DNA from: Pseudomonadota bacterium | GTDB lineage: Bacteria; Myxococcota; JACRCW01; JAFGSX01 | Direction: 5' to 3' | Length of the DNA: 64,000 bases | NCBI GenBank assembly: GCA_043821645.1 | Contig: JBDRCO010000068.1 | Location: forward strand, 32,001-96,000 | Shown here: positions 1,505 to 46,392 of the stretch, in pieces | Numbering within the stretch: position 1 is the first letter of the stretch | Layout of the letters: the number at the start of each line of letters is the position of its first letter | Notes under the pieces: generated by a model | What the model was told of the DNA's origin: nothing | What the model saw: only the letters and a program-made list of their open reading frames with translations | Databases searched by the model: none | Made by a program: the position numbers and the translations under genes

Positions 1505-1565
1505 AAAAAAAACGAAGGGCGTGGAACATCCGGTGGGGGGAGCACCGGGATGAACCACGCCCTTC
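1505..1565 (-). terminator. Rho-independent terminator
   Basis: GAAGGGCGTGG (1514-1524) pairs with CCACGCCCTTC (1555-1565), with an inner stem. A run of 8 U follows on the minus strand (A8 at 1505-1512). Confidence 0.85.
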
Positions 1566-1635
1566 AAAGGGAAGAAAAAGCAGGGCCTGGATCGTCGGAC
1601 CGGGGGGGGAATCCTAGGAACCGTCACCCTGCTGA
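1505..1635 (-). ncRNA. Candidate sigma54-dependent small RNA with two C-rich loops (Pxr-like architecture)
   Basis: Lies between a sigma54 promoter (1647-1662) and a terminator. It has two stem-loops with loops CCCCCCCC and CUCCCCC, and no credible ORF. Confidence 0.65.
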
Positions 1636-1646
1636 GTTCTTGTATT

Positions 1647-1662
1647 AGCGAGTACCGTGCCA
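1647..1662 (-). promoter_or_regulatory. sigma54 (-24/-12) promoter
   Basis: Minus strand TGGCACGGTACTCGCT versus consensus TGGCACG-N4-TTGCW, with exact GG-N10-GC spacing. Confidence 0.75.
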
Positions 1663-1965
1663 GCGTGCGGAGGCCACTCCCTGGTCCGGGTTCATTGGTT
1701 TTTTTTGCTTGGTCCGTGGAGAGCCGAAAGCGGCAAGCGGCAAGCGCTCTACAAGAACCGACGACGCGAAAAATACGTTAATTATAATAATATGTTAGAT
1801 GATGGCGAAAGAACCACATCGAGTACCATCAATAGCCGCACACGGAGGGTGGCTCTATCTATCGCGTCCTGGGCGCTGGGAGTTGGCGTCGGCGGCCTGC
1901 ACTCGCTATGAATGCACCACAGCACGTTGACTGGGCACACATGAACCCGGGGGCGAGCGAGGCCC

Positions 1966-3753
1966 ATGACGGTCGAGATTGCGGCGATCACTGGCATCCT
2001 TTTGGCCACCGTGGTGCTGCTCGCCAGCGAGCGGATCCCCGTGGACGTCACCGCTCTCGGCATCATGGTTGTGCTCATGGCAAGCGGGCTGCTCTCTCCA
2101 GGTGAGGCGCTCGCAGGGCTTGCCAACCCCGCGCCGGTGACCGTTGCCGCGCTGTTCGTGGTGAGCCGGGGGCTGGTCGAGACCGGTGCCCTGCAGGTCC
2201 TGAGCGACAGGCTGGTGATCTGGAGTGGCGGGCGCCAGGGGCGATTGCTGGTTCTGGTCCTGGTCACCACAGGCACGTTGTCGGCCTTCGTCAACAACAC
2301 TCCGGTGGTGGTGCTGCTGATCCCCTTGCTGCTCACGGTGAGCCACCGCAACGGGCTCAGTCCGTCGAAGCTGCTCATGCCCGCCTCGTTCATGTCCATC
2401 CTGGCTGGCACCACGACCCTCATCGGTACCTCGACCAACATCGTGGTCAGCGACACGGCCATGCAACTCGGCATCGCCCCGCTGGGGATGTTCGAGCTGA
2501 CGGCGCTGGGCCTGCCCCTCGCTGTCGTGGGAGGGCTCTACCTGTATCTGGCGTCACCAAGGCTGCTGCCCGCCCACCGGGAACCCGTGGTGGACCTCGA
2601 TGACCCCGAGCGGCAGCGCTATATCTCCGAGCTGAAGATCCCGCGAGACAGCCCCCTCATCGGTGCCAGCCCCATCGACGCCCTGTGTCAGCGCTGTCCT
2701 GACATGACGGTCTACGAGGTCCTGCGCGACACGCAGGTCATCGAACCTGCCCGGGAAGGTGTGCGCTTGCAGGCGGGTGACGTGGTCCTGGTCACGGCCT
2801 CCGCTGGCGATCTGGTGCAGATCCTCGACGGCAGACTGGCCGCCCTGCCCAAGGGCGAGAACGGAACCTTCGCTGCTCCCTTTGAAGAAAGTGCGGGCAT
2901 CGTCGAGCTCATCGTGCCGCCGAACTCGGATCTGGTGGGGCGGCGCCTTGCCAACGTGGCGCTGGGAGTGGACAGCCATGTGCACGTGATCGGCGTCAAG
3001 CGGCGTCGCACGCACTATGCGGAGCAGCGAGCCAGCGACTTGCGGCTGTCGGTCGGTGACATCCTGCTGGTTCAGGCCCCGCTCGATCACATCGATCAGA
3101 TCCGCAAGGGGGCGGACGTGATCGTGGTCGAGGATGTCCGTCAGAAGATCCACAATCGCCGCAAGGCGCCGCTGGCACTGAGTCTGTTCGGGCTGATGAT
3201 CGCGGCAGCCAGCCTGGGTCTGGTCGACATCCTGGTGGCTTCGCTAGCCGCGGCCCTGCTCATGCTGCTCACGGGCTGCCTCAGCCGCCGCGCGGCCTAC
3301 CAGTCTGTGGATACCCGGACCTTGCTGCTCATCGTGGGCACTCTCGCCCTGGGCCTTGCGCTCTCCCGCACCGGCGCTGCCGCCTTCTACGCGGATCTCC
3401 TGCTCACCTTCACCCGCGACCTCGGGCCGAGGGCGGTGCTGGGTTCGGTCGTCGTTGGCACCAGTGTGCTCAGCCTCTTCCTGAGCAACACCGCGACGGC
3501 CGTGCTCATCGTCCCGGTGGCCGTGGCCCTGGCGCAGGGCATGAACCTGGACCCGCGACCTTTCGTGGTGGCCGTGGTGTTTGGCGCATCGGCATGTTTC
3601 GCCTCGCCCCTGGGCTATCAGACCAACCTGCTGGTGTACGGTCCCGGGGGCTACAGCTTCCGCGACTACGTGCGCCTGGGTGTACCGCTGCATGGCATGG
3701 TCTGGGTGGTCGCCACGGTGGCCATCCCCTGGCTGTGGCCGTTCTCGGGTTGA
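1966..3753 (+). CDS. SLC13/CitT-family permease with two TrkA-C (RCK_C) domains
   Basis: Hydrophobic N- and C-terminal halves, SAFVNNTPVV, GTTTLIGTSTN, SPLGYQTNLLVYGPGGY and central TrkA-C repeats. Confidence 0.93.
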   Translation: MTVEIAAITGILLATVVLLASERIPVDVTALGIMVVLMASGLLSPGEALAGLANPAPVTVAALFVVSRGLVETGALQVLSDRLVIWSGGRQGRLLVLVLVTTGTLSAFVNNTPVVVLLIPLLLTVSHRNGLSPSKLLMPASFMSILAGTTTLIGTSTNIVVSDTAMQLGIAPLGMFELTALGLPLAVVGGLYLYLASPRLLPAHREPVVDLDDPERQRYISELKIPRDSPLIGASPIDALCQRCPDMTVYEVLRDTQVIEPAREGVRLQAGDVVLVTASAGDLVQILDGRLAALPKGENGTFAAPFEESAGIVELIVPPNSDLVGRRLANVALGVDSHVHVIGVKRRRTHYAEQRASDLRLSVGDILLVQAPLDHIDQIRKGADVIVVEDVRQKIHNRRKAPLALSLFGLMIAAASLGLVDILVASLAAALLMLLTGCLSRRAAYQSVDTRTLLLIVGTLALGLALSRTGAAAFYADLLLTFTRDLGPRAVLGSVVVGTSVLSLFLSNTATAVLIVPVAVALAQGMNLDPRPFVVAVVFGASACFASPLGYQTNLLVYGPGGYSFRDYVRLGVPLHGMVWVVATVAIPWLWPFSG

Positions 3754-3791
3754 AGCCCCCAGGGGACAGAAACCGAACGGAGAAGACGCTC

Positions 3792-4115
3792 GTGACGACG
3801 ACAAAGCCCCCGGAGCCTGCGGAGCGTTCCCGGACCTTGCGTCAGAGCATCCTCGATGAACTGCTCCGCGGACCGGTGACGGCACGGGAGCTGTCCTCGC
3901 TGGTCGGGCTGCGCGAGCGGGACATCATCCCGCACCTCGAGCACCTGGAGCGTTCCCTGCGGCGAGGTCCGCGCCAGCTCGTGATCGAGCCTGCCGAGTG
4001 CAAGGCCTGTGGCTATCTCTTCGAGGACAGGCGGCGCCTGGGCAAGCCCAGTGCCTGCCCACGCTGTCGCGAGCAGCGCATCGATCCCGCCAGCTTTCAC
4101 GTCGTGGGACCGTGA
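3792..4115 (+). CDS. HTH plus Zn-ribbon transcriptional regulator (COG3357-like)
   Basis: HTH (TARELSSLVGLRERDIIPHLEHL) followed by CKACG...PSACPRC. GTG start inferred. Confidence 0.85.
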   Translation: MTTTKPPEPAERSRTLRQSILDELLRGPVTARELSSLVGLRERDIIPHLEHLERSLRRGPRQLVIEPAECKACGYLFEDRRRLGKPSACPRCREQRIDPASFHVVGP

Positions 4116-7100
4116 TCAGGTGCGGCGCGGTCGGCGGCGAAGGGCATACAGCATGCCGAGTGCCAGCAGCAGGGCAGAGCTGGCACGAACACCGGAGGAC
4201 CCACAGGAACACCCTCCACCCGTGATGGTCACGTCCGAGTACGGCTCATCGTCACAGGCATCACCCATACCGTCACCGTCGCTGTCCAGTTGATCCCGGT
4301 TGGCGACCCCCGGGCAGTTGTCGAGGCTGCTGTACACACCGTCTCCATCGGGGTCCACCACGGCTAGCTCGACGCAGTCCGAGGGCTCGTCCGTGCAGAC
4401 GAATCCTGGCTCGATCTGGCAGGTGGCATCGCAGCCGTCGCCGGCCGAACGATCGCCATCGTCGCACTGCTCCCCGGCATCGATGGCCAGGTTGCCGCAC
4501 AGGGGCGTGCAGACCGAAGGCTCGCCCGCACAGGAATAGCTCGTCTCGACCTGGCAGGTGGCATTGCAGCCGTCACCGACGACCAGGTTGCCGTCATCGC
4601 AAGTCTCACCCGCGTCGAGGCTGCCGTCACCGCAGGTGAGAGCACAGACCGAGGGTTCACCCGAACAAGCGTAGCCGCTCTCGACCTGGCAGGTGGCATT
4701 GCAGCCGTCACCGACGACCAGGTTGCCGTCGTCGCAAGTCTCACCCGCGTCGAGGCTGCCGTCGCTGCAGGTCAGGGCGCACACCGAGGGCTCGCCGATG
4801 CAGGCGTAGCCCGGCTCCACCTGGCACAGGTTGTTGCAGCCGTCGCCGACAATGAGGCCGCCATCATCGCAGGCCTCGCCCGCATCGAGCGCTGCATTGC
4901 CACACAGCAGGCTGCAGGTCGAGGGCGTGCCGCTGCACACCCAGCCCGGCTCCACCTCGCAGCGATCGCTGCACCCGTCGCCGTCCCGGGCATTGCCATC
5001 GTCGCAGGCTTCGCCATCCACCACGTCGCTGTCGCCGCACACCGGGGCGCAGGTCGACGGCGTCCCGGCGCAGACGAAGCCGGGCTCGATCTGGCAGATC
5101 ACCGAGCATCCATCGTCGGCGGTCTGGTTTCCGTCGTCGCAGGCCTCACCAGCGTCCAGAGTGCCATCGCCGCAGGTCGTGGCGCAGGTGCTGGGCTGGC
5201 CCGTGCAGACCGAGCCAGGCTCGACCTGGCACAAGTCGCTGCAGCCGTCCCCGGCGACAGTGCCACCGTCGTCACAGCCTTCACTGGCCGTGATCACGCC
5301 ATCGCCACACTGCTGGGTGCAGGCGCTGGGCGAACCGGCGCAGTTCCACCCCGGTTCCACCTGGCAGGTGCTACTGCAGCCGTCTCCGGCCCGGGTGTCC
5401 CCGTCGTCACAGACCTCGCCAGCGTCGATCGCGCCGTTGCCGCAGCTCGGCGCGCAGGCGCTCGGTGAGCCGCTGCAGGCCCAGCCCGGCTCGACCTGAC
5501 AGGTGGCATCACAGCCGTCCCCGGTTGCCAGGCCGGCGTCGTCACAGGCCTCGCCAGCGTCGAGCGCGCCATTGCCGCAGCTGGCCACGCACAGCGAGGG
5601 CTCACCGCTGCACTGGTATCCAGGTTCGACCGCGCAGGCGGCGTTGCAGCCGTCGTTGCCCGCGAGGTTGCCATCGTCGCAGCCCTCGCCAGCCTGCAAC
5701 AGGCCATCCCCGCACGAGCGCAGACAGGTGCTGGGAGTCCCCGAGCAGGTCCAGCCTGGCTCGACCTGGCAGGTCTCCGAGCAGCCGTCTCCCGAGGTGC
5801 TGCCGCCGTCGTCGCAGGCCTCGCCACTGTCCAGGGTGCTGTCGCCGCAGGTCTGGGAGCAGACGCTGGGTGCGCCCAGGCACACATATCCAGGTTCGAC
5901 CTGGCACAGGTCATCGCAGCCGTCGCCCGCATCGAGGTCGCCGTCATCGCAGGCCTCGCCCAGGTTCAGGACACCATTGCCGCAGGCCGGTTCGCACAGG
6001 CTCGGGGAACCGTGGCAGGAGTAGCCGGTCTCGACCTGGCAGGATGCGTCGCAGCCGTCGCCGGTCAGGGTGTTGGCATCGTCACAGGTCTCGGCCCCCG
6101 TCCTCAGGCCATCGCCGCAGCTGGCGGCGGTGCATACGGAGGGCGTACCTGTGCATTGCCATCCTGGGTCCACCTGGCAGGCACTACAGCCATCGTCCGG
6201 CAGTCCGTTGCCATCGTCACAGGCCTCGACACCGGCCACGATGCTGTCGCCGCAGCTGGTGCCACAGCGCGAGGGCTCGGCCGAGCAAACCCAGCCGGAC
6301 TCGACCTGACACAGGGCGGAGCAACCGTCTCCGTCCGCGACTGCGCCGTCGTCGCAGCCCTCGCTGGAGGCCACCAGACCATCACCACAGCTTGAGCTGC
6401 AGGCCGAGGGCGTTCCCGTACAGACGAAGCCGTGCTCCACCAGGCAGGCCGCGTCGCAGCCGTCACCTGCCGCCGAGTTGCCATCGTCACAGGCCTCGCT
6501 CATGGTCAGGATCGCGTCGCCGCAGACCGGGACGCAGGTCGACGGGGCGCCCACGCAGAAATAGCCAGGTTCCCGCTGGCAGACAGCGCTGCAGCCGTCA
6601 CTGCTCGCCGCGTTGCCGTCGTCGCATTGCTCGCCGGCATCGAGAGCCCCGTTGCCGCAGGTGGCCACGCACACGCTGGGCGACACGCTGTTGTCACACA
6701 CGTAGCCCGGCATGACCTGGCACAGGTCGCTGCAGCCGTCGCTGACCCCTGTCACGCCGTCGTCGCAGGCCTCGTCAAAACCGACCACGCCGTCCCCGCA
6801 GGTCGTAACGCAGAAGCTGGGCTCCCCGCTGCACGACGCACCGGTTTCCTCCTGGCAGGTCGGTGAGCAGCCATCGCCGGCCTGCAGGTTCTGATCGTCA
6901 CAAGCCTCACCCGCGTCGAGCTGGCCATTGCCGCAGCTCGCGGTACAGGTACTGGGCAGGGAAGAGCTGTCGCACACGTAGCCAGGCTCGACCTGGCAGC
7001 TCGCATCGCAACCGTCCCCTGGGGCAAAGTTCCCGTCGTCACAGCCTTCTCCCGCATCGAGGCTGCTGTTGCCGCAGGTCTGGGCGCACAGCGAGGGCTG

Positions 7101-10100
7101 GCCGCTGCAGACCCAGCCCGGCTCGACCTGGCACAGGGCACTGCAACCGTCCAGGTGGGCGCGGTTGCCGTCATCACAACCTTCTCCAGGATCGATGGCG
7201 GCGTCACCACAATGCTGCGGCGTACAGGACGGGCCGCTGTTGCCTGGGACGCACTGGTCGCAGTACGGACCGTAGAATCCGGGCTGGCAGGAGCAGGTGC
7301 TGGGCGTCCCGGCCGGCAGCGTGCAGGTCCATCCGGGCTCAACCTGGCACGTGGACGAGCACCCATCTCCGCTGATCGCGGCGCCGTCGTCACAGGCCTC
7401 ACCGGGGTCCAGGCCGCCGTTGCCACACACCAGCAGGCACACGCTGGGCACACCGCTGCAGCTGTAACCTGGTTCGACACGGCAGGTGTCGGAGCATCCA
7501 TCCAAGTTATCCAGGTCGCCGTCGTCGCAGGCCTCACCGGGGTTGAAGACCCCGTTGCCACAGACCGGGAAGCACGCGCTAGGCTCGCCGCTGCAGCTGT
7601 AGCCCGGCTCCACCCGGCACAGGTCAGAACAACCGTCGCCAGCACTGGTTCCGGCGTCGTCGCAGGTCTCGCTCCCTGCCAGCACGCCGTCGCCGCAGGT
7701 CGTGGTGCAGGTGCTGGTCGGCGTGCCACTGCACGTGAAGCCTCGCTCGACACTGCAACGCGAGTCGCAGCCATCCCGGTTGGCGACGTTGCCGTCGTCG
7801 CAGGCCTCGCCGTCCGCGACGATGGCGTCCCCGCACAGGGGCTGGCAGTCCGAGGGCGCCCCAAGGCACACGAAGCCGGGTTCCACAGTGCACGTATTCG
7901 TGCACCCATCCCCCATGGTCAGGTTGCCGTCGTCACACGCTTCGCCCGCATCGAGGGCGCCATTGCTGCACGTCGCCGCGCAGGACCCGGGTCCGGTGCC
8001 CACGCAGACGTACCCAGGTTCGACCTGGCAGCTCGCCGAGCAGCCATCGCTGGCCACGGCGTTTCCGTCGTCGCAGGTCTCCCCGTTTGCCTTCAAGCTG
8101 TCTCCACACACAGCGGCACAGATAGAGGGCGGGCTGCTGCTGTCGCAGGTGGAGCCCGACTCGACCTGGCAAGACGCCGAGCAGCCGTCGAGGGGGTCGA
8201 TGTTGCCGTCGTCACAGATCTCGCCGCTGTCCAGGATTCCGTCGCCGCAGGTCTGGGTACAGGCGCTGGGGGTCACGGAGGTGTTGCACACCCAGCCTGG
8301 TTCCACCGCGCAGGTCGCGGAGCAGCCGTCGCCAGCGACCAGGTTCTGATCGTCGCAGGCCTCACCGGTGTCCAGGGTCCCGTCTCCGCAGGTCGCCGCG
8401 CAGACGCTGGGCTGCACCACGGTATCGCACACGTAGCCGGGCTCGACCTGGCACAGAGCGGAGCAGCCGTCGCCGGAGCTCAGGTTGCCGTCGTCACAGG
8501 TCTCGCCACTGTCCGTGGTGCCGTCGCCGCAGCTCTCGAGCGCGCAGCTGGGGCCGTCGTATCCAGTGGCACACTGGTCGCACAGGGCCCCGGTGAAGGG
8601 CGGTAAGCAGGTGCATGTGCCAGGGCCTGCACCGACGCAGACCCAGCGGTCCTCGACCTGGCAACTCGGACTGCATCCGTCACCTGCCAGGAGGTTCTGG
8701 TCGTCGCAGGCCTCACCAGGGTCCAGAGCGCCATCGCCGCAGGTCAGGGAACAGTCCGAGGGCGTGCCAGTGCAGCCATATCCAGGCTCGACACGGCAGA
8801 TGTCGCTGCAGCCGTCGCCATTGACGCCATTCTGGTCGTCACACTGCTCCCCTGGATTGAGCACGCCGTTGCCACAGACCGGGTCGCAGACCGAGGGCTG
8901 ACCCGTGCATGCGTACCCAGGTTCGATGGCACAGGTAGCCGAGCAACCGTCGCCGGCTGCGGTCGCTCCATCGTCGCACTGCTCCGCACCGCTCACGGAA
9001 CCGTCCCCGCAAACCGTGACACAGACCGAGGGGTCTCCCGAACAGCTCCAGCCCGACTCCAGGGTGCAGGCTGGGCTGCAGCCGTCGCCCAGGCTGGCGT
9101 TGCCGTCGTCGCAGGCTTCGCCGAGGTCGACGGTGCCGTTGCCGCAGGTGAAGACGCAGGTGCTGGTCGGCAAACCCGTGCACACCCAGCCTGGCTCAAC
9201 GGTGCAGGCGACCGAGCAGCCATCACCCGAGGTATCGTTGCCGTCGTCACAGGCCTCGGCGCCGGCGACGATGCCGTCGCCACAGTGCTCTGCCACGCAG
9301 ACCGAAGGCGATCCCGTGCATAGCCAGCCCGGCTCCTCCGCGCACAGCGCACTGCAACCGTCGCCGTCCGTATTTGCCCCGTCGTCACAGGTCTCGTTGC
9401 TCTGGACCACGCTGTCGCCACAGGAGCCGGTCACCGCGCTGCAGTCGCCCGCACAGTAGTCACCATCCACGGTGTTGCTGTCGTCGCAGGCCTCGGTCTC
9501 GGCGCAGGTCGCACCGTCACCGCAGGACGAGCCCGCGCCTGCGCCGGAGCAGGTGGCGTTGCAGGAGCCACACGCGTCGGCAAAGCCGTCGTCGCAGCTC
9601 TCGATCTCGGGGCACACCACGGAGTCACCGCAGGTCGAGCCGGAGCCCGCACCTGTGCAGGTGGCGTTGCAGGTGCCGCAGGCGTCGGCGAAACCATCGT
9701 CACAACTTTCGGTCTCGGGGCACAGGACGCTGTCCCCGCAAGTGGAACCCGTCCCTGCGCCGGAGCAGGTGGCGTTGCAGGTGCCACAGGCGTCCGCGTA
9801 GCCGTCGTCGCAGGTCTCGGTCTCGAGGCAGGTGGCGCCATCACCACAAACCGAACCCGAACCCGAGCCCGAGCACGTCGCGTTGCAGCTACCGCAGGCA
9901 TCCGTGAAGCCGTCGTCACAGGACTCGGTCTGGGGACAGGTCGCGCCGTCTCCGCAGGTCGAGCCCGTGCCGGCGCCGGTGCAGGTCGCGTTGCAGGTCC
10001 CGCACGCATCCGTGTAGCCATCGTCGCAGAACTCGGAGCCCTCGGTGACGCCATCACCGCAGACGGGCAGGGTCACGGTCCAGGTGTAGGTTGCCGGGGT

Positions 10101-12497
10101 GACCTCGGTATTGCCCGCGCAGTCGATGGCGCGCACCCGGAAGGTATAGCTCCCGTCGATGAGCCCGCTGTAAGGCCAGGGACTTGTACAGAAAGTCCAG
10201 GCACCAGGGACGGCGCCGACGTCGAGGCGACACTGGAACACCACCGAGGTCTCGGCGTTGGTGAACGCGAAGCTCGCGGTGGGGAGCAGCGAGGGGTTGC
10301 TCGGCCGGGCTGTGATGCTGGTGCCAGAGGGCGCCGTGGTGTCGGCCGCACCGCTGCTGATCGAGAAGTTGACCGTGCGCACGGTGCTGAGGTTGCCCGC
10401 GCGGTCGATCGCCACGCTCTCCATCACGTAGGCTGAGGTCCCCAGAGCCTGGGCGGGCAGCGTCTCGTAGGACCAGAAGCCACTGGCGTCCGCCGTGACC
10501 GTGGCCAGGCGCGCGTCCATGAGGCCGCCCCCGTTGAGGTCGATGGTCACCCGGGCAAAAGGCTCGGTGGTGCCCCGGAAGTTCGGCGTCGTGTCGTTGA
10601 CCGTGCTGCTGTTGACCGGGCACTGCACGACGGGGGGCGCCGGATCGGTGCGATCCACAATCCAGTCCCAGCGTGCTGGGCTCGCGTCGACGTTGCCGGC
10701 CGCATCCACGGCACGGACTTCGAAACGGTGGGCGCCTTGGCCGAGCCCGATCTCCACACGCGGGCTGGTGCACGCGCTGAAGGCTGCGCCGTCCAGGCTG
10801 CACTCGAAGGCGCTGCCAGCCTGGCTGGCAGTGAAGCCGAAGGTCGCGTCCACCGACAGCGTGAACAGCGGCGGCGTCTGGGTGAAGGTCGTGTCCGGGG
10901 CCGTGGTGTCGACCGTCCAGGTGTAGGAGGCCGGCGTCGGGTCCGTGTTACCGGCAGCGTCGGTGGCGCGCACGGAAAAACTGTGCGGGCCGTCGCCCAG
11001 GGCGCCGGTCGCCTGCGGCGAGGTGCAAGGAGCGTAGGCCGCACCGTCGAGGCTGCACGCGAAGCTGCTACCACTCTCGCTCGAGGTGAAGGTGAAGCTG
11101 GGGCTCGCCGTGCCGCTCGGGTCGCTCGGCGTTCCTGTCAACGTGGTCTCGGGCGGGGTGGTGTCACCCGCATTGGGGTCGACGGTGAAGGTGATGGGGC
11201 TGCTCACTGGCCCGAGGTTGCCTGCTGCATCCGTGGTGCGCGCCGTGACGGTGTGGGTGCCGTTGCCCAGGACCTGGCCTGACGTCAGGGTGTAGCTGAA
11301 GTTGCCCGCCGCGTCGGTGATGGCGAACCCGACCGAGCTCCCGTCGACGAAGATCTCCGCCATCGCTCCAGCCTCGCTCTCGCCGGTGTTGCCCGTGATG
11401 GTCGGTGTGGTCTCGCTGGTGCTGCTGCCGTTGGCGGGCGACAGGATGGTGGGCGCCGGGGGCGGCGTGGTGTCGACGCGCCAGGTGTAGCTGGCTGGCG
11501 TCGGGTCGACCTTTCCCGAGCTGTCCTTGGCGCGCACCAAAAAGGTGTGGCTGCCCTGGCTCAGACCGCTCAGCGCGCGAGGGCTCGTACACACGGCATA
11601 GGCCGCCGCGTCGAGCTTGCACTCGAAGGTCGCGCTGGCGTCGTTGGAATTGAACTGGAAGCTCGCGCTGGTCTGGTTCGTCAAAGTGGCCGGCTTGGCC
11701 GTGATGAAGGTATCAGGCTCGCCGCCTGTGCAGCCCGATGGATCCGTGCAAAAAACCGGATCGCCCGCGCCTCCGCTGACCGTCACGCCCGTGGTGTCAC
11801 CCGAGAGCAGCCGGCCGTTCTGCGACGAGCCGAAGAACAGGCGCAGGGGCAGGGAGGTGTTGTAGCCCATGGCGACGAGGTCGGCGATGGGGATGGCCCA
11901 GCTCAAGAAGTAGTCGGGGTTGCCGCTAAAACAGCCCGTGGAGCAGGCCTGGGTCGAGCGAAAGAACGCGGGGTAGGGGCTGACAGGGTAGATGCCGACG
12001 AACACGTCCGCATCGTCGGTGGGACTCGAGGTTCCCGAGCCCTGGGTGTTCTGCTGCAACGTCACGCGCTCGGGGTTGCCCATGCCGCCGTCGACCATGG
12101 ACAACGCATCGTAGTTGCTCAGGTCGCCGTCCCAGTCGAGCAACGCACCCCAGCCCCACTGCCCGAGCAGGCCGTTGCCGCTGGGCGCGCACACTCCAGC
12201 GGTCCGGTTGGTGCAGGGATCTCCGTCGAGGCGAATGCGCAGGAACAGGTAGGTGGCGTCGCGCGCCACGTAGGCCGCCGGCCTGGTGGCATCGCCCACC
12301 AGCTCCTGGGCGCTGTTGCCGCCCTCGACGGGGTCTGACAGCGCCACGTTGCTGGCCTCGATGGGCAGCCAGGCTGAGTCTGCCGGCCAGCTTGCCGGAG
12401 GAGGGGTCTGGGCACTGGCGGTGGAGACCAGGAGGACACCCAGCAGACCGATCGAAACGGTCAAGAACCGCACCCAGGTCTTCGCCATGCCTGTCAT
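4116..12497 (-). CDS. Giant surface protein: Ig-like domains, ~40 myxobacterial Cys-rich (DUF4215-type) repeats, TSP3-like repeat, MYXO-CTERM-like anchor
   Basis: Signal peptide; DTTPP/PASYTW Ig-like repeats; CG[DN]GxxxxGExCDDGNxxxGDGCSxxCxVEPG repeats; DGDGV..DNCP..NxDQLDSDGDGMGDACD; C-terminal GGGCSC + TM + RRRPRR. Start placed at the ATG after GAGGAAG. Confidence 0.93.
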   Translation of the reverse strand: MTGMAKTWVRFLTVSIGLLGVLLVSTASAQTPPPASWPADSAWLPIEASNVALSDPVEGGNSAQELVGDATRPAAYVARDATYLFLRIRLDGDPCTNRTAGVCAPSGNGLLGQWGWGALLDWDGDLSNYDALSMVDGGMGNPERVTLQQNTQGSGTSSPTDDADVFVGIYPVSPYPAFFRSTQACSTGCFSGNPDYFLSWAIPIADLVAMGYNTSLPLRLFFGSSQNGRLLSGDTTGVTVSGGAGDPVFCTDPSGCTGGEPDTFITAKPATLTNQTSASFQFNSNDASATFECKLDAAAYAVCTSPRALSGLSQGSHTFLVRAKDSSGKVDPTPASYTWRVDTTPPPAPTILSPANGSSTSETTPTITGNTGESEAGAMAEIFVDGSSVGFAITDAAGNFSYTLTSGQVLGNGTHTVTARTTDAAGNLGPVSSPITFTVDPNAGDTTPPETTLTGTPSDPSGTASPSFTFTSSESGSSFACSLDGAAYAPCTSPQATGALGDGPHSFSVRATDAAGNTDPTPASYTWTVDTTAPDTTFTQTPPLFTLSVDATFGFTASQAGSAFECSLDGAAFSACTSPRVEIGLGQGAHRFEVRAVDAAGNVDASPARWDWIVDRTDPAPPVVQCPVNSSTVNDTTPNFRGTTEPFARVTIDLNGGGLMDARLATVTADASGFWSYETLPAQALGTSAYVMESVAIDRAGNLSTVRTVNFSISSGAADTTAPSGTSITARPSNPSLLPTASFAFTNAETSVVFQCRLDVGAVPGAWTFCTSPWPYSGLIDGSYTFRVRAIDCAGNTEVTPATYTWTVTLPVCGDGVTEGSEFCDDGYTDACGTCNATCTGAGTGSTCGDGATCPQTESCDDGFTDACGSCNATCSGSGSGSVCGDGATCLETETCDDGYADACGTCNATCSGAGTGSTCGDSVLCPETESCDDGFADACGTCNATCTGAGSGSTCGDSVVCPEIESCDDGFADACGSCNATCSGAGAGSSCGDGATCAETEACDDSNTVDGDYCAGDCSAVTGSCGDSVVQSNETCDDGANTDGDGCSALCAEEPGWLCTGSPSVCVAEHCGDGIVAGAEACDDGNDTSGDGCSVACTVEPGWVCTGLPTSTCVFTCGNGTVDLGEACDDGNASLGDGCSPACTLESGWSCSGDPSVCVTVCGDGSVSGAEQCDDGATAAGDGCSATCAIEPGYACTGQPSVCDPVCGNGVLNPGEQCDDQNGVNGDGCSDICRVEPGYGCTGTPSDCSLTCGDGALDPGEACDDQNLLAGDGCSPSCQVEDRWVCVGAGPGTCTCLPPFTGALCDQCATGYDGPSCALESCGDGTTDSGETCDDGNLSSGDGCSALCQVEPGYVCDTVVQPSVCAATCGDGTLDTGEACDDQNLVAGDGCSATCAVEPGWVCNTSVTPSACTQTCGDGILDSGEICDDGNIDPLDGCSASCQVESGSTCDSSSPPSICAAVCGDSLKANGETCDDGNAVASDGCSASCQVEPGYVCVGTGPGSCAATCSNGALDAGEACDDGNLTMGDGCTNTCTVEPGFVCLGAPSDCQPLCGDAIVADGEACDDGNVANRDGCDSRCSVERGFTCSGTPTSTCTTTCGDGVLAGSETCDDAGTSAGDGCSDLCRVEPGYSCSGEPSACFPVCGNGVFNPGEACDDGDLDNLDGCSDTCRVEPGYSCSGVPSVCLLVCGNGGLDPGEACDDGAAISGDGCSSTCQVEPGWTCTLPAGTPSTCSCQPGFYGPYCDQCVPGNSGPSCTPQHCGDAAIDPGEGCDDGNRAHLDGCSALCQVEPGWVCSGQPSLCAQTCGNSSLDAGEGCDDGNFAPGDGCDASCQVEPGYVCDSSSLPSTCTASCGNGQLDAGEACDDQNLQAGDGCSPTCQEETGASCSGEPSFCVTTCGDGVVGFDEACDDGVTGVSDGCSDLCQVMPGYVCDNSVSPSVCVATCGNGALDAGEQCDDGNAASSDGCSAVCQREPGYFCVGAPSTCVPVCGDAILTMSEACDDGNSAAGDGCDAACLVEHGFVCTGTPSACSSSCGDGLVASSEGCDDGAVADGDGCSALCQVESGWVCSAEPSRCGTSCGDSIVAGVEACDDGNGLPDDGCSACQVDPGWQCTGTPSVCTAASCGDGLRTGAETCDDANTLTGDGCDASCQVETGYSCHGSPSLCEPACGNGVLNLGEACDDGDLDAGDGCDDLCQVEPGYVCLGAPSVCSQTCGDSTLDSGEACDDGGSTSGDGCSETCQVEPGWTCSGTPSTCLRSCGDGLLQAGEGCDDGNLAGNDGCNAACAVEPGYQCSGEPSLCVASCGNGALDAGEACDDAGLATGDGCDATCQVEPGWACSGSPSACAPSCGNGAIDAGEVCDDGDTRAGDGCSSTCQVEPGWNCAGSPSACTQQCGDGVITASEGCDDGGTVAGDGCSDLCQVEPGSVCTGQPSTCATTCGDGTLDAGEACDDGNQTADDGCSVICQIEPGFVCAGTPSTCAPVCGDSDVVDGEACDDGNARDGDGCSDRCEVEPGWVCSGTPSTCSLLCGNAALDAGEACDDGGLIVGDGCNNLCQVEPGYACIGEPSVCALTCSDGSLDAGETCDDGNLVVGDGCNATCQVESGYACSGEPSVCALTCGDGSLDAGETCDDGNLVVGDGCNATCQVETSYSCAGEPSVCTPLCGNLAIDAGEQCDDGDRSAGDGCDATCQIEPGFVCTDEPSDCVELAVVDPDGDGVYSSLDNCPGVANRDQLDSDGDGMGDACDDEPYSDVTITGGGCSCGSSGVRASSALLLALGMLYALRRRPRRT
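4545..4764. repeat. Near-identical 135-bp-period internal duplication in the giant gene
   Basis: The ~85-bp block ctcgacctggcaggtggcattgcagccgtcaccgacgaccaggttgccgtc... occurs at 4545 and 4680 with one mismatch. Confidence 0.85.
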
Positions 12498-12683
12498 TTC
12501 TTCCTCGAGTCGACGAGCCCCCGCCCGCGTGTTCAAGTCTGGCTGGCGGGGATGATATCACCTTGGTCGCTTCGGTCGATTGTCGTCCGCGAGGCCAGTG
12601 CTGGCGCGTCCTTGAGGGTCGGCCGAGCCCTGGCAGGCGTTGCCTGGCTTGACGGCCGCGCGAGCAACCGTCAAGGTGGATGC

Positions 12684-46176: not shown

Positions 46177-46392
46177 TTTCCCCTGCGCTGTACGTGTTGA
46201 GTGACTACGCTCTGAACCTAGCTAGTCCACAGGGGGCCGGACAGCGCGCCCATGTGCATCCCTCCTCGGCGGTGAGCGCGGTGCGCTCGTACAGCCGTCG
46301 ACGCTGGGAAGCCTCAAAGCGCGGCAAAGGCTCCCACCTGTCGAGAGACAGGTTCGAGACAGCGCCCACACGGCAGAGGCGGGGGATTTTTT
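46177..46392 (+). ncRNA. ssrS: 6S RNA
   Basis: Closing stem UCCCCUGC/GCGGGGGA; CUCUGAACCU/AGGUUCGAG; central bubble; GGGGGCC/GGCUCCC; GGGAAGCCU and CCCACCU motifs; 3' U-run; zapA-rny synteny. Confidence 0.88.

Follow-up and report, generated by a model that had tools for sequence, protein, structure and literature searches.

To our knowledge, only a handful of regulatory RNAs have been described from myxobacteria, and Pxr is the only one that has been well studied. In Vibrio, the Qrr/LuxO system combines sigma-54 promoters and an NtrC-type regulator with one RNA gene divergent beside the regulator gene and several redundant copies, and the Qrr RNAs are Hfq-dependent and have a conserved single-stranded seed. 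RsaE/RoxS, LhrC and RepG mask G-rich ribosome-binding regions with C-rich or CU-rich loops, with several seeds per RNA and sibling genes. Here, an element on the minus strand (1662-1505) of a 64,000-nt stretch of DNA from a bacterium of the Myxococcota (the window, meaning the whole stretch that was analysed) was compared with these systems. Judged from sequence, the element very probably is a real small regulatory RNA (sRNA) gene and a member of an uncatalogued family, and on balance it is best read as the gene of a trans-acting sRNA of about 130 nt from a conserved sigma-54 poly-C-loop family, for which we infer an activator and a pairing mechanism. According to the available part of PMC5568312, pxr lies downstream of pxrR (nla19), between pxrR and an NADH dehydrogenase gene, and Pxr is confined to the Cystobacterineae and described as a recent invention of one suborder. 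The key loop of Pxr, in its stem-loop 1, reads UUCCCCCCC and contains a cytosine run, as the initial annotation of the window had correctly stated; a C-to-A change in this loop abolishes Pxr function, which makes the C-rich loop genetically essential (PMC5684412, available in part).

On the minus strand, a sigma-54-type promoter is followed by two long hairpins with apical loops of C8 and CUCCCCC and by a U8 tract, all of which, together with a pyrimidine linker, are present where the initial annotation had placed them. The promoter TGGCACGGTACTCGCT (1647..1662; -24 GG at 1661-1660, -12 GC at 1649-1648) was recognised as a sequence match and is one position off the sigma-54 consensus TGGCAC-N5-TTGCW. 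Sigma-54 transcripts usually start about 12 nt beyond the -12 GC, and the predicted transcription start, set at this distance, is at about 1636 (range 1634..1638). Stem-loop 1 (SL1, 1579..1633) has the apical sequence GGAUU-CCCCCCCC-GGUCC with the C8 loop at 1609-1602 in both the minimum free energy (MFE) and the centroid fold. The 13-nt pyrimidine linker UUUUCUUCCCUUU (1566..1578) is unpaired in the fold, and CU-rich linkers are found in many family members. Stem-loop 2 (SL2, 1514..1565), the terminator hairpin, is formed in the fold by GAAGGGCGUGG and CCACGCCCUUC and carries the apical sequence GGUG-CUCCCCC-CACC (loop 1542-1536). The U8 tract (1505..1512), read from the sequence, ends a predicted intrinsic terminator that was omitted by a simple terminator scan, which accepts only loops of 3-8 nt on a single uninterrupted stem. 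Mechanically called open reading frames (ORFs) overlap the element, one 52-aa frame beginning within the terminator stem, and by their sequence these are the kind of frames that GC-rich DNA yields.

The MFE of the 141-nt RNA was -61.9 kcal/mol, compared to a mean of -38.9 kcal/mol (sd 3.4) for dinucleotide shuffles (z = -6.75), and 0 of 200 shuffles were as stable. A functionless coincidence of a promoter-like sequence with GC-rich hairpins has in its favour that GC-rich DNA folds readily and that the promoter word, found once in the window, is expected there 0.42 times and occurred at least once in 36 of 100 shuffles, which alone is not significant. Across the 7.07-Mb genome, 23 sites fit TGGCA[CT]G-N4-[TC][TC]GC[TA], and 3 of the 23 are followed about 50 nt on by a hairpin with a C8-C9 loop.

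The window's genome holds at least three copies of the RNA gene, namely the window element, C87:224611-224790 and a copy on contig C31. BLAST of the element against its own genome returned only the element itself because the stems diverge, and BLAST against 60 relatives gave no match; the paralogs were found by a script that reports C-runs of at least 6 in a hairpin loop behind a sigma-54 word. The C87 copy carries two C-loops, and its apical sequences are nearly the same as those of the window element; the C31 copy carries a single C-loop, followed by a plain terminator. Each of the three sits in a long intergenic gap and has AT-rich blocks about 100-145 nt upstream. The window element and the C87 copy have the apical sequence CGGUGCUC6-8ACCG in common with G001, which is the one other genome from the same taxonomic family. 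GGAYU-C8/9-GGUCC recurs on different lower stems in C87, C31, G001 and G003, a genome of the same class. Across all representative genomes this motif was present at 50 loci, and a sigma-54 promoter lay within 90 nt upstream at only 4 of the 50 (6 instances), all of them in metagenome-assembled genomes (MAGs) labelled as Myxococcota or Deltaproteobacteria.

The promoter and C-loop pattern matched 12 of 101 related genomes. Because the reversed-pattern control also gave matches (8 in 5 genomes), only 9 inspected genomes were counted. Matched genomes include G001, G003, G039, G042, G067, G072, G082 and G087. A single-sequence covariance model of the window element (R1) gave a full-length match in G039, which belongs to another family of the same phylum; this locus has the promoter, C8 and UCCCCCC loops and a U-tract on different stems (z = -7.3). 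The first C-run follows the promoter start at +53 in the window and at +57 in G039, with similar distances in C87, C31, G001 and G003. Further R1 matches were rejected, those in G051 and G031 as lipoprotein signal-peptide coding sequence and one in G039:C11 as coding. Tandem arrays were also observed: G003 has three single-hairpin copies in tandem, locus L186 has three copies about 400 bp apart and is identical in sequence to G003:C497, two copies lie at G042:C16:15537-16048, and further arrays are found at L095, L115 and L112 (two copies, 723 bp apart). Such tandem siblings each have their own sigma-54 word and terminator, and in some cases the gene is a short form of about 75 nt with one hairpin.

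The extent of the family was assessed with pattern scans that combine a promoter with two C-runs. In species-representative genomes, the strict pattern gave 13 loci, of which 8 carry Myxococcota-type titles and 3 others no label beyond Deltaproteobacteria or delta proteobacterium, and the relaxed pattern gave 70 loci. In JGI metagenomes, a C7 + C7 pattern gave 48 loci, of which 31 have at least two C-loops and 23 of these 31 also a U-tract. Broken down by record title, the 70 loci have two or more hairpins with C-loops in 24 of 26 cases with Myxococcota/Polyangia/Sandaracinaceae-type titles, in 7 of 9 'Deltaproteobacteria' MAGs, in 6 of 9 of Desulfovibrio type and in 8 of 26 from other taxa. 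Most pattern matches came from Polyangia-type Myxococcota MAGs, and a U-tract follows the last hairpin in most of the Myxococcota-type matches. The resulting layout of the family is a sigma-54-type promoter, one to three long hairpins with apical runs of C6-C10 and a U-tract terminator. The full layout was additionally observed in MAGs labelled as other phyla, namely L121 (Alcaligenaceae), L103, L105 and L106 (Coriobacteriia/Eubacteriales), L109 (Alphaproteobacteria) and L069 (Novosphingobium); L109 is near-identical to L097 and L136, both from Polyangiales, which points to mis-binning of contigs, and the other five may mean a wider distribution of the layout.

In 69 of the 104 non-redundant instances each of the two C-runs sat in an apical loop, compared with 212 of 2080 controls (10%) in which the C-runs were fixed and the flanks shuffled. 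By BLAST clustering most members are singletons and the sequences are highly diverged. In an 8-sequence sister subgroup, 94.9% of the cells were paired, compensatory changes were present in 18 of 25 pairs, 0 of 500 shuffles reached the score, and pairing fell to 34-46% when the 3' partners were slid by 1-3 columns. Covariation is thus strong in this subgroup; none is claimed for the window's own subgroup, whose MAFFT alignments were poor because loop lengths differ. With the fold z-score, a layout present in about 70 independent sequences under a shuffle control, covariation and, as set out below, conserved synteny with one activator clade, a chance origin of the element is very unlikely and is left with next to no probability. 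The family is absent from Rfam 15 and was not found in the literature searched, which was a limited collection. The sequence matches show this family to be widespread in the Myxococcota outside the Myxococcus family. The wording 'new anti-SD (Shine-Dalgarno) sRNA family', offered in the initial annotation, is a fair description, as the element belongs to a conserved family.

The same comparisons bear on the possibility, also foreseen in the initial annotation, that the element acts in cis, as leader or attenuator for the lipoprotein gene starting at 1296. The element does lie on the strand of this gene, 209 nt upstream of its ATG, and no other promoter was identified for the gene. A strong hairpin with U8, however, ends the element 209 nt before the lipoprotein gene, and the other copies precede unrelated genes, a REC-GGDEF gene 770 nt off at C87 and an extensin-like protein gene at C31. 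Contexts and orientations in the family are many, and every copy in a tandem array comes with a promoter and a terminator of its own. In G001, the homologs of the lipoprotein are encoded on contigs C385 and C276, apart from the RNA homolog, which is on C133. Among the relatives, no such RNA was detected upstream of homologs of the lipoprotein (best R1 score 9.1 bits). The shared strand notwithstanding, the terminator and the unrelated neighbours of the copies weigh against a leader, which is highly improbable.

For the reading as an independent sRNA gene, the G039 copy provided the link to a candidate activator, as it lies divergent from a gene for an NtrC-type regulator (REC + Sigma54_activat + AAA_lid). 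The ortholog of this regulator in the window's genome is at C3:73502-74893 (55% identity, 535 bits; next best match 335). One ortholog per genome was found in 32 of the 101 relatives, in families f1, f2, f4, f6, f18 and f21 and with none in f11. At 15 of 30 activator ortholog loci, a divergent sigma-54 word and a C-loop RNA lie about 190 nt from the regulator start. At seven further loci a well-conserved two-C-loop RNA is present, which makes 22 of 30 at which the RNA gene is divergent beside the regulator. In a tree of bacterial enhancer-binding proteins (bEBPs; 73 sequences, quick search, midpoint root, no bootstrap), the activator orthologs formed one clade of 29 rows with an SH-aLRT value of 100, and PxrR of G012 and G035 was placed in the other half of the tree. 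In reciprocal searches, PxrR and the family activator were not best matches of each other. The activator-RNA module is thus like pxrR-pxr and, by the sequence tests run, is not orthologous to it. The genome encodes rpoN and has 45 Sigma54_activat matches. As had been stated at the outset, no NtrC-type gene is adjacent to the window element: none was found within 6 kb by motif, and the nearest Sigma54_activat match on the contig is about 63 kb off. Neighbouring genes vary between subgroups.

Two sequence features of the activator loci were additionally observed. Upstream of the well-conserved two-C-loop RNAs at L283, L292, L293, L295, L296, L297 and L308, CTTTGAAA...AGTTAGAGG stands in place of TGGCAC-N5-TTGC, which may represent a switch of promoter type. 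A GTGG(T/C)AAAA-N3-ACC word is located 15-30 nt before the regulator start in many orthologs (L286, L291, L292, L295-L297, L307, L310 and others).

Upstream of the window promoter, a TTGCCGC-TTGCCGC-TTTCGGC repeat on the minus strand (1723..1743), about 60-80 nt from the promoter, is a weak candidate activator site; among the family promoters examined, that of the G039 locus included, GCGGCA/TGCCGC was the 6-mer most often found upstream (5 of 8). Further upstream, an AT-rich block (1768..1800, minus strand) in this genome of 67% GC holds TTATTATAATTA at 1790-1779, at -128 from the promoter. The C87 copy carries TTAATATAATTA at -129, so that window and C87 have TTAWTATAATTA in common at -128/-129. 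A sigma-70-like site was also read by scan in the AT-rich block (TCGCCA-16-TATAAT, 1808-1781). By sequence, the block may be an enhancer, a bending site or a second promoter.

The comparison with Pxr was based on a reference set of 26 pxr loci found with the Northern probe printed in PMC5568312. True pxr loci receive 82-129 bits from the Rfam model RF01812 and one paralog receives 65.6 bits (curated threshold 80 bits); the model matches 9 of 9 genomes of family f11, which places the window's genome in the same phylum as Myxococcus. The search with this model that the initial annotation had proposed came out negative, with no match in 1350-1850 of the window (E<=10), none in the whole genome (E<=1) and none at 27 family loci (16 at E<=0.01, 11 at E<=1). 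None of the Rfam 15 families gave a meaningful match in 1350-1850 at gathering score or E<=10. Sub-threshold RF01812 matches in G012, G048 and G042 were rejected, as they are without C-runs and without promoters. Diverged Pxr homologs with 42-50 bits, under the Rfam threshold, were observed at L338 (G094), L339 (G079) and L337 (G054), which belong to genera of the Myxococcus family that have small genomes; upstream, two of these three loci have sigma-70-like words instead of the sigma-54 word.

In design, the element and Pxr have much in common. Both occur in Myxococcota, and the promoter of the 26 pxr loci (CTGGCACG-N4-CTGCTAA) has nearly the same wording as that of the element, the form CTGGCACG-N4-YTGCTAA covering pxr and the new family alike. 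The first C-run follows the promoter at a similar distance, +58 in Pxr and +53 to +57 in the new family, and the long first hairpin carries a UUC7-type loop in both (Pxr GGUUCCCCCCCACC, f4 copies GGUUUCCCCCCCGCC, G042 GGUUCCCCCCCCACC). Both have an NtrC-type regulator nearby, a length of about 100-130 nt, a terminator hairpin and, in some genomes, tandem paralogs (4 Pxr matches in one Archangium locus, 3 tandem copies in G003). These likenesses would be expected if the element were a strongly diverged true Pxr homologue, with Pxr the Myxococcaceae branch of an older RNA present throughout the phylum, and the weak matches of R1 to Pxr (9-13 bits) fall exactly on the pxr genes; such scores, however, are at noise level for a genome-scale search.

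Further differences speak against homology. Pxr has one C-loop in SL1, a small SL2 and an SL3 terminator whose stem GCGGCCCG/CGGGCCGC is invariant in most of the 26 loci, whereas the window element has two C-loops and lacks both the small SL2 and the conserved SL3 stem, which is not in the window sequence. The gene order differs as well, pxr being downstream of pxrR on the same strand and the new RNA divergent from its regulator. The pxr gene context was not found at the window, where the neighbours are a CitMHS/TrkA_C transporter and a lipoprotein gene and no bEBP motif lies within 6 kb. PxrR is outside the activator clade and has no clear ortholog in the window's genome, the best match being 45% identical with 10 matches within 30 bits. 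Short C-loops and sigma-54 promoters could also arise by convergence. Moreover, the new family is found outside the Cystobacterineae, the range given for Pxr in the available part of PMC5568312. A diverged Pxr homologue, as the initial annotation had offered in the first place, is in view of the silent RF01812 model, the two C-loops and the separate activator clade a rather doubtful possibility. The element more plausibly resembles Pxr in design and belongs to a separate family with a different activator, and it fails the Pxr membership tests that were run.

Under this assignment to a separate family, sigma-54 and the NtrC-type regulator of the activator clade (clade A; receiver + sigma-54 AAA+) would transcribe all copies, including the three unlinked ones in this genome. 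The exposed C-runs would then pair with G-runs at or overlapping Shine-Dalgarno sequences and block translation. Candidate targets would be about 40 genes whose start codon closely follows a G6-G9 run, including several for PAS histidine kinases, and with the activator mRNA as a further target a negative feedback loop of the LuxO-Qrr type would result. Transcription, activator identity and targets are all predicted from DNA sequence.

G-runs of at least 6 at 0-7 nt before the ATG were counted 41 times compared to 11 C-runs in the GC3-validated ORFs of this genome. Altogether 43 genes have a start-proximal G-run, and a Pfam scan of 40 of them gave 5 HATPase_c (mostly PAS histidine kinases), 2 receiver, 1 REC-bEBP, 1 Ser/Thr kinase, 1 FHA and 1 SspB protein, the rest being unrelated enzymes. 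The one REC-bEBP among them is the activator ortholog. In its mRNA, UGGGGGGAGC stands 4 nt ahead of the AUG as the perfect complement, over 10 nt, of GCUCCCCCCA in the tip of SL2 (1543-1534, minus strand). This complement occurs 19 times in the genome, one occurrence being the opposite strand of the RNA gene, and only the activator site is at a clean start region. Since duplex energies were uninformative when stem bases were included, only the loops were used; the loop-only duplex energy at the activator site was -24.2 kcal/mol (mean -10.2, sd 3.8), rank 4 of 3478 crude start regions. A G-run of at least 6 within -40..-1 is present in 6 of 26 activator orthologs. As separate observations, G7-G9 runs directly precede the ATG of genes for PAS histidine kinases, an RHS-repeat protein, an ABC transporter and SspB (e.g. 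C53:18846, C53:29245, C29, C46:112636, C31:83852, C101:118706), an unusual kind of ribosome-binding site, and SspB genes also flank the RNA at L076 and L085.

Repeated loops, sibling copies and drifting stems are also traits of known sponge RNAs. The poly-C loops might accordingly titrate a C-binding protein (KH-domain, cold-shock-like or Rho) in the manner of CsrB/RsmZ: the loop motif is repeated two to three times per RNA and up to four times in Desulfovibrio-type loci, several gene copies per genome and tandem arrays exist, the loop sequence is kept while the stems drift, and Hfq was not found in the genome. No candidate binding protein, however, is linked to the loci, and single-hairpin versions exist (C31, G003). 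The G-runs at ribosome-binding positions and the perfect 10-nt match in the activator mRNA also speak for pairing and make a protein-titrating RNA unlikely. The single C-to-A loop change that kills Pxr function points the same way, though it is compatible with either mode (PMC5684412, available in part).

Several observations weigh against the reading as a trans-acting sRNA with the activator and the pairing mechanism proposed here. The link to the activator rests on other genomes, as no RNA gene lies beside the activator in the window's genome or in G001, and the window, C87 and C31 copies are all unlinked to it, none being its divergent neighbour. Seven of the 22 activator-linked copies are without the TGGCAC promoter. 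Upstream of the three copies no convincing common activator site was found, only AT-rich blocks and the weak TTGCCGC, and other bEBPs flank some members (FHA-type at L076, another at L085); different copies may answer to different activators. On the target side, gene starts were called crudely (GC3 and first ATG), and at 3-21 nt before the start 87 G-runs were counted vs 66 C-runs, a modest excess beyond the 0-7 nt bins. The excess of histidine kinases, like that of signalling genes at large, was noted post hoc (5 of the 40 genes scanned vs 72 HATPase_c matches genome-wide), and the top 15 start regions by duplex energy include 2 kinases and are otherwise mixed with no clear theme. In G039, the activator mRNA matches the loops of its own RNA over only 5-6 nt. 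An Hfq domain was not found in the genome, which is 94.7% complete. No RNA run containing 1300-1900 of the window was found, and two metatranscriptome assemblies, from the study of the best DNA source, did not cover the element, which 2 DNA runs did cover; this is uninformative either way.

Compared with Qrr/LuxO, the new family has in common sigma-54, an NtrC-type regulator, a divergent RNA gene, several copies and a predicted feedback on the activator. It differs in its unrelated sequence and in its candidate seeds, which are hairpin loops; no Rfam family matched at gathering score or E<=10 and Hfq was not found, so that the element is not assigned to Qrr. RsaE/RoxS, LhrC and RepG belong to other phyla, have other promoters and show no sequence relation, and the C-runs of the new family are longer (C6-C10), with matching G6-G9 start regions. 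A comparable locus type is found in Desulfovibrio vulgaris, where Dv_sRNA2 is sigma-54-dependent and a target of the adjacent NtrC-type regulator DVU0679 (PMC3333781, available in part). Nine Desulfovibrio-type loci (L072, L084, L088, L099, L104, L116, L126, L131 and L138; Desulfovibrio, Nitratidesulfovibrio, Halodesulfovibrio) were observed to have a sigma-54 word followed by C7-C12 loops. They have 1-3 C-run loops in the 170 nt folded and more C-runs beyond, and a protein with a Walker-A motif (GETGTGKE) is encoded about 1 kb off in 8 of the 9. By analogy, these loci may represent the Dv_sRNA2/DVU0679 pair. Compared by description, this system is from another phylum and has more hairpins than the new family; if the loci are this pair, poly-C-loop sigma-54 RNAs are present in a second phylum.

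The element is located in a 670-bp gap between two divergent genes. One encodes the CitMHS/TrkA_C transporter (1966-3753, plus strand; Pfam) and the product of the other, on the minus strand with its start at 1296, has 583 aa, resembles a lipoprotein at its N-terminus and matches no Pfam family. A 173-aa ORF (3594-4115, plus strand), the C-terminal half of which matches a PF0610-like N-terminal domain and a zinc ribbon, runs in a different frame across the 3' end of the transporter gene, and its true start is therefore probably later. At 4116-12536 (minus strand) a secreted protein of 2806 aa with dozens of cysteine-rich CGDG...CDDGN repeats is encoded; an ORF adjoining locus L093 that is similar to this repeat protein matches DUF4215. 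A 6S/SsrS RNA at 46177-46389 (plus strand; 61.6 bits, gathering score 46.4) was the sole Rfam family found in the window.

A broader interpretation is put forward only tentatively. The loci may form an undescribed module, common to the majority of Myxococcota beyond the Myxococcus family, in which one NtrC-type regulator and sigma-54 drive sibling poly-C sRNAs that silence poly-G ribosome-binding sites, among them those of PAS histidine kinases and of the regulator's own mRNA, with a LuxO-Qrr-like feedback and with Pxr as an offshoot or a convergent copy. If this were true, the view of Pxr-type control as recent would need revising. Apart from this interpretation, a separate and widespread family of Pxr-like design, tied to one conserved two-component regulator, is shown here and is ready for Rfam and for genome annotation. 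The pairing of C6-C10 loops with G6-G9 start regions would offer a clean system for loop-mediated translational control in a genome in which Hfq was not found. Moreover, the family provides a comparative frame for asking if developmental control of the Pxr type has an ancient or a convergent origin, and a testable circuit consisting of the regulator, sigma-54, the sRNA, poly-G ribosome-binding sites and feedback on the regulator.

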